Shown here piece by piece: positions 3,554 through 12,754 of a stretch of 12,754 bases of DNA (position 1 is its first letter; every line of letters begins with the position of its first letter). Made by a program: the position numbers and the translations under genes. Source of the stretch: Candidatus Thorarchaeota archaeon (GTDB taxonomy: Archaea > Asgardarchaeota > Thorarchaeia > Thorarchaeales > Thorarchaeaceae). Below the pieces are notes generated by a model. The model saw nothing but the letters and a program-made list of their open reading frames with translations, made no database searches and had not been told where the DNA came from. The DNA is taken from contig JBHIAE010000072.1 in assembly GCA_046758445.1 (NCBI GenBank), forward strand, positions 1-12,754, in the 5' to 3' direction.

Positions 3554-5308
3554 ATGAAACGTGCTCAATTGGAGTCAGTGACTTCTGAGGTTGTTGGTAA
3601 CGCATTAATGTCAATAGCTGAGCAGATGGGTATGGTACTGGTAAGATCTGCATACTCTACCAACATAAAGGAACGAAAGGACTGTTCCAGTGCAGTATTC
3701 GGTCCAAAAGGCAGACTAGTAGCCCTTGCTGAACACATACCCCTTCATCTTAGTTCCATGCAGGGGTTAGTAGCAGAAATCGCGAGAAAATCAGGAATCT
3801 GGTGTCTGAGAGCTGGTGATGTTATCATAGCAAATGACCCCTACAAAGGTGGTGGTTCTCACCTCCCTGACATAACACTTGTTCAACCTGTGTTCTATGA
3901 ACGAAATATGGTTGCATTTGTCGCCAATATAGCTCATTGGTCTGATGTTGGAGGACGATTGCCAGGAATAGGAACGGCTGGTGATTCAACAGAACTGCTG
4001 CAGGAAGGTTTACGCATTCCTCCAACCCGGATAATATCTGAAGGTGTCATTCGCACTGACAATCTGGATTTTATCCTCATCAATATGCGAAATCGAACTG
4101 AACGCCTTGGTGATTTCCATGCACAAATCGCCTCACTACGTTTAGGTGAGAGAAAAGTAATGGATCTCTTCAAGCGTTATGGAACTGAAACAATCAATGC
4201 GTGTATCGAAGAAATCCTCGACTACAGTGAAAGGCAACTTAAGGCTGCAATTCTGAATGTGCCTGAAGGCGACTATGACTTCGAAGATGCATTGGATGAT
4301 GATGGCATCACGGACAATACTTTAGCAATTAGAGTTCTCGTTAGTATTTCCCACGAGCCTGAAGCTTCGATTTGCTTTGATTTCAGTGGTACGGAAACTC
4401 AGGCGCGCGGAGGAATTAACATGGTATGGTCCGCCCTTCTGGCCTCGGTGTTCTATGCGTTGAAAGCTATACTGGTTCCAAAAGTGCCATTGAATGCGGG
4501 CTTTCAAAGGCCTATCAAGATTAAGGCACAAGAAGGGAGTGTTGTCAATGCTCAAGAGCCAGCAGCAGTTGGTGGACGTGCGGATACTTGTCAGAGAGTT
4601 GTGGATACTATAATGGGGGCTTTTGGCAAAGTGGTTCCAGAGAAGATTGTGGCTGCCTCAAATGGTGCCACTACTGCAATAATCATTGCTGGGACAAAAT
4701 CAATGACAGGAAGAGACTTTGTCTTTGTCGAAGCTTTGGGGGGCGGTATGGGAGCCAAATTCAATAGAGATGGGATAGATGGAATACAGGTGCATATGAC
4801 AAATACTTCCAACCTGCCAATAGAGGCTGCAGAGCTTGAATATCCTATTCGAATTCTGCACTATGGTCTTGTACCAGATTCAGGAGGTCCTGGAAAGTTC
4901 CGTGGAGGATTGGCAATTCGTAAAGACATAGAGTTCCTTCGCCCCGTTCTGTTTTCAGCCCACTCTGATCGGCACCGTATTCCGCCTTGGGGGGTTCGGG
5001 GTGGACTATCTGGGAGTTGCGGCAAGTTTGTTTTAGATCCTGACAGTCCTACGGAACGGATTCTTCCTTCGAAGACATCAGGCATTAAGATTGACAGAAA
5101 CCAGATACTCAGAGTCTTCACTGCGGGTGGAGGAGGATATGGAGAACCAACTCTTCGTAATCCACAAAATGCAGCGGTTGATCGTGTGTCGGCAAAAGTA
5201 AGTGACAGACAGTTGCGTGAAATCTATGGCGTGGAGGTTTCTCCTCAAGGTGAAATAGACTGGAGAGCAACCCAAGCTCTTCGAAATAGGAAGCGTAAAG
5301 GACAGTGA
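3554..5308 (+). CDS. hyuB: Hydantoinase B / 5-oxoprolinase family subunit
   Basis: [74 protein letters not shown] and GGGGYG motifs. Confidence 0.93.
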
Positions 5309-8878: not shown

Positions 8879-9832
8879 TCAAAATGCTATCTCAAGTTCT
8901 TGTACGAGCTCCTTGTAGCGATTGCGAACGGTGACTTCTGTGACTCCAGCAGCTTGGGCAATCTCTCGTTGTGTCGTACGATTCTCTGTTAGAATTGATG
9001 CGATATAGACGGCTGCTGCAGCCAGACCTCGGGGATCCTTCCCAGTGATCAAATGCGAGTTCTCCTTTACCCTTCTAAGAATGTCCAGAACTTTTCCTTG
9101 CATGTTTCCCGGAACGCTCAATCTAGATATTATCTTGGGAACATAGGTTGTGGGGTCAGGAACAGGCATCTTCAGGTTCATCTTTCGTGCTATGAGCCGA
9201 TAGTGTCGTCCTATCTTCTTCATATCGATTCTAGAGTGCCTCGCAATCTCCTTTAGGGATCGAGGAATCTGTCTCAATCGACAGGCGGCATAGACGGCTC
9301 CTGCAACTGTTGCATCAATTGACCGGCTACGCATTAGTCTGTTTGAGAGCGCCTTTCTGTAAATCATGGCGGCAAGGTCCTTGACGCTCTTCTTCAGTTC
9401 CAGTTGCGATGCAAGTCTGTCCAGTTCAGTCAGTGCCTGAATGAGGTTTCTCTCGTTTGAGCTATGTATCCGACTCCGAATCTGCCATTTTCTGAGTCGA
9501 TGGATTTCCGCCCTTCTTCTTGGAGAAAGTCGCTTGCCTGACGAATCACGATCACGCCAGTCAATTGCTGTTGATAATCCCTTGTCGTGCATTGTATATC
9601 TTGTGGGCGCTCCTGTTCGCTCTCTTGCTCTCCGCTCCTCTGCAGTGAACGCTCTCCACTCGGGTCCTGTGTCAATCTTCTTCTCACTCACAACAAGACC
9701 ACACTGAGCACACACTCTATCACCAGAACTTCTCTTCTGAACAATCTGAGTTCCAGAACACTCAGGACATGAGAATGATGAACTATCACTAAACGAATCT
9801 TTGTACTTCCTTCTTCTTTTACTAAATGGCAT
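8879..9832 (-). CDS. tfb: Transcription initiation factor IIB (TFB), 317 aa
   Basis: Zn ribbon CPEC...CAQCGLV, B-reader IDTGPEWRAF, HDKGLST.ID, two cyclin repeats, GKDPRGLAAAAVY and TQREIA..AGVTEVTVRNRYKEL. Confidence 0.97.
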   Translation of the reverse strand: MPFSKRRRKYKDSFSDSSSFSCPECSGTQIVQKRSSGDRVCAQCGLVVSEKKIDTGPEWRAFTAEERRARERTGAPTRYTMHDKGLSTAIDWRDRDSSGKRLSPRRRAEIHRLRKWQIRSRIHSSNERNLIQALTELDRLASQLELKKSVKDLAAMIYRKALSNRLMRSRSIDATVAGAVYAACRLRQIPRSLKEIARHSRIDMKKIGRHYRLIARKMNLKMPVPDPTTYVPKIISRLSVPGNMQGKVLDILRRVKENSHLITGKDPRGLAAAAVYIASILTENRTTQREIAQAAGVTEVTVRNRYKELVQELEIAF

Positions 9833-10375: not shown

Positions 10376-10693
10376 CTATTTGACAACAATATTGTCGATA
10401 ATATCAACGACTCCGAACGTGTTCTCCACACAATCGAGTGCTGCCCGATAGACCACAGGACTTGCAACTGTTCTAGCCAGTGTCACCTCTCCATCCTTAA
10501 CTCGAATGTCGATGTCACTAGGCTCAATCCCGTGTGTCTGTTTCATTGCAGAAACAATGTCCTTTGCTATTGCTTCATCCACAACACTCTTTGTCGGCAC
10601 TATCTTGAGCGCATTCTTAATCTCTAGTACTCCGCCAACATCTGCGACAATCTGGCTCGCACGATGCTTCTTCCAATATGCATCAACATATCC
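10376..10693 (-). pseudogene. 5'-truncated BON (OsmY-like) domain protein, about 1.5 domains
   Basis: The frame extends upstream of the listed ORF as GYVDAYWKKHRASQIVADVGGVLEIKNALKIVP (second half of a BON domain), followed by a full BON domain (DEAIA..I...IDIRVKDGEVTL...GVVDIIDNIVV). There is no start of its own. Confidence 0.8.
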
Positions 10694-11096
10694 ACAGGGT
10701 GTTTGTCGTCAGTATTGTCTTGATGGTGTCTTCCAAGAGTGTGGACGACCGAAGCACTCGACCTTGGGCCTTCTCCTCCATGTGTGCCAGTTTCGGCTCG
10801 TTGCGTGCCAACGTGTAGAAGGATGAGAAGTCTAGGTCCAGTCCAAGCATCCAGATGACCGTTTCCTTCACTCCTCTCTTCTGTTCTGGGGTCATACTAT
10901 CTTCCGTTTCAACACAAGCGCCGTCGGTCGTTTCACTGATACTCAATCGCACAACCCTGCCTGAAACCAGCTGTAGAGTGTAGCTGAGAATTGGAGGATT
11001 TTCTTCGAATGAGAAGGGAGCCAGCTGCCACCAGCCATGTAATCTCACGGTAGAATAGAGGGAGAAGGGAGCATGAGCCTTCAATGTCATTCTCAT
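10683..11096 (-). pseudogene. 3'-truncated HhH-GPD (AlkA/Ogg1-like) DNA glycosylase
   Basis: PFSL..TV..HGW.QLAPF, WMLGLD.DFS.FY and GRVLRS.TL.ED.IKTILTTNTLW. The ORF stops before the HhH motif and catalytic region. Confidence 0.78.
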
Positions 11097-11260
11097 TGTG
11101 TCTTCGGTGTGTCTTGGTACTCTGACACAGATAACTCCGTTCATTCCCTGAGATCCTGAAGAACGGCCATGCTTTCGTTCGGAGCCTGTTGAGAAAGAGT
11201 GGTCGGGACGGCTGCCTGACATTCTTAGATTCAGTTAGTTTCAGGTGGTCCATCAGCAAT

Positions 11261-11269
11261 CCTTTTAAC
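11261..11269 (+). promoter_or_regulatory. TATA box of the tRNA gene (CCTTTTAAC)
   Basis: Lies about 30 nt upstream of tRNA position 1. Confidence 0.55.
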
Positions 11270-11311
11270 GAAACGAAGGTGACACCAAGCCGGTTTCGGG
11301 ACGTAGCTCAA

Positions 11312-11341
11312 AAGAGCGTCGTTTCGACGGCCTCTGAGAAA
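11312..11341 (+). other. tRNA intron 1 (D-loop, ~15/16, 30 nt, relaxed BHB)
   Basis: Central helix GCTC/GAGA with one mismatch, intron helix AGAG/CTCT plus CGTCG/CGACG. An alternative register (CTCA/TGAG, intron 11313-11340) exists, so the boundaries are uncertain by 1 nt on each side. Confidence 0.75.
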
Positions 11342-11349
11342 TCTGGTAG

Positions 11350-11378
11350 TTTGATGCTCACATGTGTATCAAGCCAAA
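11350..11378 (+). other. tRNA intron 2 (22/23, 29 nt)
   Basis: Central helix TGGT/GCCA, bulges AG^T and AA^A, intron helix TTGATGC/GTATCAA. Confidence 0.87.
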
Positions 11379-11393
11379 AGCAATGGACTGTAG

Positions 11394-11424
11394 AGAGCTG
11401 CCAATTTGGATGGCGTTCATAGTT
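11394..11424 (+). other. tRNA intron 3 (canonical 37/38, 31 nt)
   Basis: Central helix CTGT/ATAG, bulges AG^A and TT^A, intron helix GAGC/GTTC plus GCCA/TGGC; the outer helix is the anticodon stem. Confidence 0.92.
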
Positions 11425-11446
11425 ATCCATTGGTTGCTGGTTCAAA

Positions 11447-11476
11447 GGCCATCATGTTCTCCATGATGGCTGAATC
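11447..11476 (+). other. tRNA intron 4 (T-loop, 59/60, 30 nt)
   Basis: Central helix TTCA/TGAA, bulges AA^G and TC^T, 9-bp intron helix GCCATCATG/CATGATGGC; the outer helix is the T stem. Confidence 0.92.
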
Positions 11477-11734
11477 TCCGGCCGTCCCGACCATTTCATT
11501 CCTTCTGTCTTCGCCCTAGAAAGTAATCCTATGAACGGGTTTGAACCGGCCTGACCTGTTTCTTTAGATGAGTGAACTTCAACCATAAGAAACTCCTGTG
11601 TTTCACCCTTTCTCTGCCAAGTGTCGCCACCTTTCTACAGGTTCTGTGACCCTGGGAAAGAGCAGAGAGTCCACCTGATGATATCCTAGATTTGGACGAT
11701 TGCAAGGAGAAGATTCACAATCTGCTCTCAAGTC

Positions 11735-12128: not shown

Positions 12129-12754
12129 CTGTCAAGACGGCCAATAGAGAATACGTTTCCAATCTCAGAGATCAATAAGATTGCAGAGAAGGAATCGACT
12201 GGTTTTGGCAGATGTCACTACAGGCCGGTATATGTCATGCATAAGTGGTGGGCTCGTAGACTTGGGTCAGTATTCCGGTCCATTATACTGTATAGTTTGG
12301 CTGACAAAACTCTGACTAGTTGGGACCAGGACGCTTCAACGCTCTGGAGTCTATATCCACATGAGGTGGATCTATCCGGTAAAGTGGTTCTAGATCCAAT
12401 GATGGGAGGAGGAACCACAGTTGTTGAGGCACTAAGGTTCGGGTGTAATGTGATTGCTGGGGACCTTAACCCGGTAGCGTGGTACATTGTCAAGAAAGAA
12501 CTGGAGGATATCAATCCTCAACTGCTTACAGAGGCCCTTGAACAGCTGGAAGACAAACTTGGCGTTGAGATTAGACGATATTATCGAACGAAGTGTCCCG
12601 AGTGCGGAGATTCGGCAGAGGGCATCTACTACTTCTACTACAAGGAGCTTGTTTGCACTGATTGCGCAACTGCAATCCCCCTAATGCGCAATTTTGTACT
12701 TGCGAAATCTCTGACAAATGATGGAGATTCTGTGATTTGCCCTCAATGTTGGGG
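12129..12754 (+). CDS. DUF1156-type adenine-specific DNA methyltransferase with Zn-ribbon insert (partial, runs off the window)
   Basis: Hand translation gives RRPIENTFPISEINKIAEKE...MHKWWARRLGSVFR, SAM-binding VLDPMMGGGTTVVEALRFG...GDLNPVAW, and the Cys pairs CPEC, CTDC and CPQC. Not in the ORF track. Confidence 0.9.
   Translation, partial: MSRRPIENTFPISEINKIAEKESTGFGRCHYRPVYVMHKWWARRLGSVFRSIILYSLADKTLTSWDQDASTLWSLYPHEVDLSGKVVLDPMMGGGTTVVEALRFGCNVIAGDLNPVAWYIVKKELEDINPQLLTEALEQLEDKLGVEIRRYYRTKCPECGDSAEGIYYFYYKELVCTDCATAIPLMRNFVLAKSLTNDGDSVICPQCW

Follow-up and report, generated by a model that had tools for sequence, protein, structure and literature searches.

Transfer RNA genes interrupted by several introns are said to have been described in Thermoproteales by Sugahara in 2007 and 2008 and by Fujishima in 2010. 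As of 2021, archaeal tRNA genes were known to contain up to three introns each, according to the tRNAscan-SE 2.0 paper (PMC8450103). In Asgard archaea, 92-95% of the tRNA genes of Atabeyarchaeia and Freyarchaeia were reported to have introns, and more than half to have several (PMC11291895, 2024), and a preprint of October 2026 describes up to five intervening sequences in one Asgard tRNA gene and an average of 2.2 per gene in its three focal families, finding that annotators miss inserts in the D-arm and that there is no general route by which inserts are copied between tRNA genes (10.64898/2026.10.13.758758). Hidden disrupted genes had already been suspected in 2018 as the reason for incomplete Asgard tRNA sets (PMC5829648).

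Here we analyse a tRNA gene of a Thorarchaeota genome (the focal genome, G000). The window, by which we mean the whole 12,754-nt stretch of DNA analysed, is an entire contig (C72) that encodes TFB and ribosomal protein L10e, the latter 78-87% identical to that of MAGs labelled Candidatus Thorarchaeota. With a probability of roughly 0.88, we read the locus as a functional single-copy tRNA-Tyr(GUA) gene with four short bulge-helix-bulge (BHB) introns, at positions 15/16, 22/23, 37/38, and 59/60, which would be spliced by the EndA/RtcB route. A preliminary description took three introns to be the known maximum; this is superseded by PMC11291895 and 10.64898/2026.10.13.758758, and the claim of novelty fails because Asgard tRNA genes with multiple introns have been in the literature since 2024, and genes with up to five since October 2026.

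Anatomy of the gene and its introns

At 11297-11493 (+), 197 nt yield a 77-nt tRNA-Tyr(GUA) after removal of four inserts of 30, 29, 31, and 30 nt, which total 120 of the 197 nt (61% of the gene). All parts lie on the forward strand. Exon 1 (11297-11311) contains the 5' strand of the acceptor stem (C1 to G7), U8, A9, the 5' strand of the D-stem, and A14 and A15, and is followed by intron 1 (11312-11341, 30 nt) at position 15/16 in the D-loop. Exon 2 (11342-11349) is the 8-nt micro-exon TCTGGTAG, covering positions 16-22 with G18 and G19, and intron 2 (11350-11378, 29 nt) follows it at 22/23, inside the 3' strand of the D-stem. Exon 3 (11379-11393) comprises A23 to C25, A26, the 5' strand of the anticodon stem, and the loop bases C32, U33, G34, U35, A36, and G37, after which intron 3 (11394-11424, 31 nt) occupies the canonical position 37/38. 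Exon 4 (11425-11446) supplies A38, the 3' strand of the anticodon stem, the variable loop, the 5' strand of the T-stem, and the T-loop from U54 to A59; intron 4 (11447-11476, 30 nt) interrupts the T-loop at 59/60, and exon 5 (11477-11493) completes the gene with U60, the 3' strands of the T-stem and acceptor stem, the discriminator A73, and an encoded CCA. A run of A residues at intron 1 allows its borders to shift by one base, leaving the product unchanged. A split or permuted tRNA gene is ruled out, the five exons being colinear on a single strand within 197 nt.

The preliminary description had claimed that these 197 nt reassemble into a canonical tRNA-Tyr(GUA), with introns in the D-loop, D-stem, anticodon loop, and T-loop, and its coordinates prove exact: ARAGORN calls the joined exons a complete, full-length tRNA-Tyr(gta), and the intron sites are fixed by orthologues. 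The spliced molecule has a full cloverleaf, with the anticodon GUA in a 7-nt loop with U33, with U8, A14, G18, and G19 present, and with the T-arm GCUGG-UUCAAAU-CCGGC. Its acceptor stem, CGGGACG/CGTCCCG, is a perfect 7-bp helix whose halves lie 197 nt apart, followed by A and CCA. Read from the DNA, the C at 11297 pairs with the G at 11489 as C1-G72, and A73 is position 11490. C1-G72 together with A73 forms the identity set of TyrRS in archaea and eukaryotes, and the mature product would presumably be aminoacylated with tyrosine.

We set the intron borders by alignment to intron-free orthologues and scored BHB geometry afterwards at those borders, using the rule that exon bases -6 to -3 pair with intron bases -6 to -3, leaving two 3-nt bulges, each cut after its second base. 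Introns 2, 3, and 4 form perfect 3-4-3 BHBs, with all four pairs in the central helix: TGGT/GCCA for intron 2 (inner helix of 7 bp, outer helix of 1 bp), CTGT/ATAG for intron 3 (inner helix of 4 bp, outer helix of 6 bp formed by the anticodon stem), and TTCA/TGAA for intron 4 (inner helix of 9 bp, outer helix of 5 bp formed by the T-stem), the last two being of the strict hBHBh' form. Intron 1 is relaxed, with three of four pairs (GCTC/GAGA, with a G.A mismatch), bulges AA|A and AA|T, no outer helix, an inner helix of 4 bp, and a 9-bp bulged hairpin closed by a UUCG loop. The proposal of three clear BHBs and one relaxed version was thus accurate, the central helix being 4/4 at three junctions and 3/4 at 15/16.

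Freedom in placing four deletions might produce a resemblance to tRNA-Tyr by chance, and a BHB solver run under relaxed rules does return wrong alternative parses, for example a five-insert solution for the span 11297-11493. The borders used here, however, were fixed by intron-free orthologues and not by BHB, the BHBs were then found precisely there, and the tRNA-Tyr exons are near-identical in about 20 species. Random junction pairs of the same lengths from the same genome satisfy the strict rule at a frequency of 3.9e-4 and the relaxed rule at 2.9e-3, and this background excludes chance for the tRNA-Tyr junctions; we regard a coincidental resemblance as having a negligible probability.

The register of intron 1 requires more discussion. 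Excision at the fully paired CTCA/TGAG would remove 28 nt and give a 79-nt tRNA with an 11-nt D-loop (AAAAUCUGGUA). This helix is a perfect 4-bp helix between AAA bulges, is kept in five of five species (as CTCA/TGGG in G020), and suits the strict 3-4-3 rule better than the register containing the G.A mismatch. Against it, the intron-free orthologues have a 9-nt D-loop, AAUCUGGCA, which corresponds to excision of 30 nt; the base that this excision would leave at D-loop position 16 differs between the five species (A, A, T, G, G), which an intron base would be expected to do but an exon base would not; and a 28-nt excision would put six bases between A14 and G18, more than standard tRNA numbering allows. 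We consider the shorter excision improbable and prefer the 30-nt intron, because it reproduces the D-loop of intron-free genes and because its first base is variable while A14 and A15 are invariant.

Intron distribution in relatives and the integration question

Orthologues were collected by BLAST of the tRNA-Tyr region against 40 relatives followed by spliced alignment. The joined exons are identical at 71 of 74 positions (96%) to the intron-free tRNA-Tyr genes of G013, G009, G016, G017, and G005, and the three differences from these 74-nt genes are all C-to-T changes that keep the fold. Inserts are absent from these five genomes and from G021. A single insert is present in G015 (15/16), in G006 (22/23), and in G018 and G024 (37/38); two are present in G007 (15/16 and 37/38) and in G012, G022, and G023 (22/23 and 37/38); and three are present in G020 (15/16, 37/38, and 56/57). 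About 120 nt are inserted at four sites in G000, G002, and G003, and a gapped pattern search of 87 genomes of the order found this insert total in these three only, all of one genus. Across genus g1, the number of tRNA-Tyr inserts is 0, 1, 2, or 4 (11 genomes with a recovered Tyr gene).

For every insert of the focal gene, other Thorarchaeota have a homologous insert at the matching site. Homologues of intron 1 occur at 15/16 in G015, G007, G020, and G002, and those of intron 2 at 22/23 in G012, G022, G023, G003, and G006. An intron at 37/38 is found in ten species and falls into two main sequence families plus the divergent intron of G024. For intron 4, no homologue was found among the first 40 relatives; a family-wide search located one at 59/60 in G087, a member of a different genus, where the stretch from exon 4 through intron 4 to exon 5 is 80% identical to that of the focal gene. 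By BLAST, no paralogous copies of the four introns exist elsewhere in the focal genome, and there is therefore no sign of intron transposition within it.

To count covariation, exon flank and intron were aligned between species and pairs were counted for the predefined BHB. Intron 1 (five species) has 90% of alignment cells paired and four pairs in which both bases changed, the G.A position being unpaired in five of five; intron 2 (six species) has 97% of cells paired and six pairs changed on both sides, matched by 0 of 500 shuffles, with a central helix that covaries as TGGT/GCCA, AGGT/GCCT, and TGGC/GCCA; and intron 3 (ten species) has 94.6% of cells paired. Compensatory changes are present in introns 1-3, and intron 4, with one full homologue only, was left out of the count. 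The alignments indicate that the structure of introns 1-3 is under selection; all four introns are shared with other species and appear to be kept in a cleavable shape.

The two sister genes with four inserts, at G002:C93:1275-1472 (L008) and G003:C15:169402-169598 (L009), differ in their T-loop. A single 60-nt T-loop intron was considered for both and rejected; the 60-nt insert consists of two adjacent 30-nt introns, a strict one at 56/57 and a relaxed one at 59/60. On this sequence, the pair must be spliced in order, because the helix TTCA of the 59/60 intron would exist only after removal of the 56/57 intron.

The focal gene is itself a composite. Its 5' flank and intron 1 resemble G007, G002, and G020, which carry the other 37/38 intron family; introns 2 and 3 resemble G012, G006, G003, G022, and G023; and intron 4 resembles G087. 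This mosaic would fit recombination between differently interrupted tRNA-Tyr alleles. A stronger proposal is that the four-intron state arose by such allele recombination and that the pile-up was favoured as introns break an attachment (att) site of about 42 nt, the 3' half of the gene, into which elements of this family integrate. If true, this would be an in-the-wild case of the old idea that introns protect tRNA genes from integration; we judge it unlikely.

In several relatives, an intact gene is followed 0.9-8.8 kb downstream by a direct repeat of the intron-free 3' half of tRNA-Tyr, which runs from CTGTAGATCC to the 3' end: G016:C312 (gene at 9556-9633, repeat at 10459-10500; L015/L021), G015:C26 (16788-16907 and 18952-18993), G081:C1 (125471-125521 and 127408-127449), and G085:C127 (19983-20033 and 28790-28831). 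Such repeats are the hallmark of integrative elements for which tRNA-Tyr serves as the attachment site. The segment from position 23 to 73 is uninterrupted in 32 of 87 genomes. A shielding of the att site by introns found no clear support: the duplications in cis stand beside uninterrupted genes, but the search pattern detects intron-free copies only. At about 3752-3816 of G077:C33 (L064), there is a partial 3' copy of tRNA-Tyr with the 59/60 intron, and its inclusion of the intron argues against a simple story in which introns block integration.

Several features of the window bear the marks of rearrangement or mobile DNA. The element TGGTCGGGACGGC at 11200-11212 (+) is a perfect reverse-complement copy of the tRNA 3' end (11481-11493), so that promoter and tRNA gene are bracketed by 13-bp inverted repeats; the element also occurs about 75-95 nt upstream of tRNA-Tyr in G007, G020, and G002. 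Could it be an att remnant or the border of an invertible segment? Its placement within the first codons of an open reading frame at 10683-11222 (-) was rejected, as homologues put the gene start at 11096 and the element is then intergenic. This reading frame has no match in PHROGs. Positions 10686-11096 (-) encode the first 137 residues of an HhH-GPD DNA glycosylase of about 300 aa (3-methyladenine/8-oxoG type); the fragment is 82% identical to a full-length relative and then stops, and because the window lacks the C-terminal catalytic half, the gene was probably cut by a rearrangement or insertion near 10686. A DDE transposase gene (55-975, +) lies at the left contig end and a fragment of a phage-type DNA methyltransferase gene (phrog_10183; 12237-12752, +) runs off the right end. 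Both ends of the contig thus carry mobile-element genes, and an integrated element may occupy the region downstream of the tRNA.

Expression, processing, and detection

A BRE/TATA-like box, CAATCCTTTTAAC, lies at 11257-11269 (+), about 26-38 nt upstream of the tRNA 5' end and centred at about 32. The box GCAATCCTTTTAAC or GTAATCCTTTTATT is found at the same upstream distance in nearly all of 19 listed Thorarchaeota tRNA-Tyr orthologues, with variants in G018, G021, and G022. From its conservation and position, we infer that it is a BRE/TATA promoter. CCA is encoded in tRNA-Tyr and in nearly all tRNA genes of the genome.

The preliminary description held that a splicing endonuclease of relaxed specificity is needed, and a broad-specificity type of EndA with a conserved loop lysine is indeed encoded. 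The genome contains two EndA paralogues, with both Pfam domains, and a gene for the ligase RtcB. The EndA at C1:41790-42377 is nearest to the catalytic chains of crenarchaeal heterotetramers (3P1Z_B, 3AJV_B, 2ZYZ_B, and 2CV8) and aligns without gaps through the crenarchaeal-specific (CSL/L1) loop, where the lysine matching K44 of 3P1Z chain B is conserved; the EndA at C7:9156-9908 is nearest to the M. kandleri construct 5X89. Asgard archaea are known to have (alpha-beta)2 EndA with the L1 loop, a feature tied to cutting of relaxed motifs (PMC5829648). The second EndA gene lies between two tRNA-Arg genes (C7:7893-8000 and C7:11233-11367; L061, C7:7893-11367), both of which have a 30-nt D-loop intron at the same position.

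We infer splicing of the tRNA-Tyr precursor from these genes and from intron anatomy, and propose that the standard EndA/RtcB pathway acts four times on a single transcript. Transcription from the TATA-like box about 32 nt upstream would yield a precursor of about 200 nt, in which the acceptor and T stems would form and every intron would form a separate BHB, in which the final exon bases pair with the intron 3' end in a 4-bp helix that is flanked by two 3-nt bulges. [quoted passage not shown] Four BHBs could coexist on one precursor because each is local, involving six preceding exon bases and the intron, and the predicted minimum-energy fold of the unspliced region contains the acceptor stem, the T stem, and four hairpins. 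The D-arm would fold only after introns 1 and 2 are gone, because the 5' strand of the D-stem (GCUC) is engaged in the BHB of intron 1 and its 3' strand is split by intron 2; these two introns are probably removed in turn, their BHBs lying one base apart.

Whether this is the genome's only tRNA-Tyr gene had been raised as a check, and no other was found in the 3.25-Mb, 92.7%-complete assembly by blastn-short with the joined sequence as query. The locus could nevertheless be a decaying, non-functional copy that has collected insertions, with the working gene in an unassembled part: about 7% of marker genes are absent, leaving room for an intact second tRNA-Tyr, partial copies of tRNA-Tyr are common in relatives, and truncation of the adjoining glycosylase gene indicates that the region has been rearranged. 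The five exons are nevertheless intact and 96% identical to orthologues of working type, with structure-neutral changes; the four BHBs, the promoter box, and the CCA are all retained; the same introns occur with compensatory changes in other species, where the gene is again the sole copy found; and no other Tyr-like sequence was found in the assembly. A decaying copy therefore seems to us very improbable, even more so than the shorter excision of intron 1, and a functional gene remains the preferred reading.

Standard tRNA finders were expected to miss this gene, and this is borne out for ARAGORN and the Rfam tRNA model. The unspliced sequence has no ARAGORN match, with or without intron options, and no match to the Rfam model at the gathering score, at E<=1 genome-wide, or at E<=10 on a 500-nt region. 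Intron-free orthologues, which differ from the joined exons at 3 of 74 bases, score 71.6 bits with RF00005, two-insert orthologues score 45-51 bits, and the gene of G015, with its D-loop insert, yields a truncated match of 33.7 bits; detection therefore decays with each insert.

Other hidden genes were sought by a genome scan that paired acceptor strands followed by CCA and solved the enclosed spans by BHB candidates and a cloverleaf check. Under relaxed rules, the solver mis-parsed several genes, and because of these wrong parses it was used to find candidate genes and not to define introns. The scan recovered most genes already called by ARAGORN or Rfam, with Tyr the longest gene recovered, and four that both had missed or mis-called: Met-CAT (C7:21003-21167, -), Pro-GGG (C7:76096-76233, +), Thr-CGT (C3:91323-91426, -), and Phe-GAA (C69:3865-3972, -), with lengths that would accommodate about 1-3 inserts. 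Under the filters of the scan, several isoacceptors were not found, including Asn and several of Ser and Thr. The wider suggestion that tRNAs reported as missing in this lineage are hyper-fragmented in the same way is thus plausible but only partly shown: a few hidden genes were recovered, with about 1-3 inserts, while several isoacceptors remain unfound.

Comparison with other multi-intron tRNA genes

The locus provides a clean, comparatively anchored case of the fragmentation of an essential tRNA gene into five exons, the shortest of 8 nt. Because such a gene is invisible to ARAGORN and the Rfam tRNA model, Tyr will be wrongly missing from the tRNA inventories of Thorarchaeota MAGs. The locus is also a compact natural series for the gain, loss, and exchange of BHB introns, with homologous introns crossing genera, and it is suited to testing the substrate range of Asgard EndA.

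Among described systems, the genes of Cyanidioschyzon merolae and Thermoproteales share several of these properties. Nuclear tRNA genes of C. merolae have up to three BHB introns each, in the D-stem, at 37/38, and in the T-loop, and their ordered processing has been shown and their splicing demonstrated by RT-PCR (PMC3728597), whereas splicing here is predicted from sequence; these genes are located in a eukaryotic nucleus and some are also permuted, in contrast to the colinear archaeal gene described here. The introns of Thermoproteales, like those described here, include BHB introns at non-canonical sites, among them the D-arm and T-loop. A broad-specificity (alpha-beta)2 EndA that carries the crenarchaeal-specific loop removes them, as it would in the focal genome, and where introns are closely spaced their removal has to follow an order. 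Thermoproteales genes, however, contain three introns at most (PMC8450103), compared with four here in an Asgard genome whose composition is not hyperthermophilic, and their intron families are spread across genes, whereas those of tRNA-Tyr have no related copies elsewhere in the genome.

The closest likeness is to the Asgard multi-intron genes of 10.64898/2026.10.13.758758, which similarly have several short BHB-type introns per gene, many of them non-canonical, with unannotated D-arm inserts, repeated lineage-specific gains, and a background of (alpha-beta)2 EndA. The absence of copying between genes reported there holds for the four tRNA-Tyr introns as well. The preprint focuses on Jordiarchaeia and Atabeyarchaeia rather than Thorarchaeota (the terms 'Thor' and 'Tyr' are absent from its main text), and its introns have a median length of 22-23 nt, compared with a uniform 29-31 nt here. 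Within the focal genome, Tyr is an outlier, because gene lengths suggest roughly one insert per gene. What appears to be new is the Thorarchaeota case itself, the mosaic of Tyr genes with zero to four inserts in one genus, and the ordered T-loop intron pair in two sister species. The current picture of Asgard tRNA genes is unchanged by this case: the gene is an extreme example of the known Asgard multi-intron type and not a new kind.
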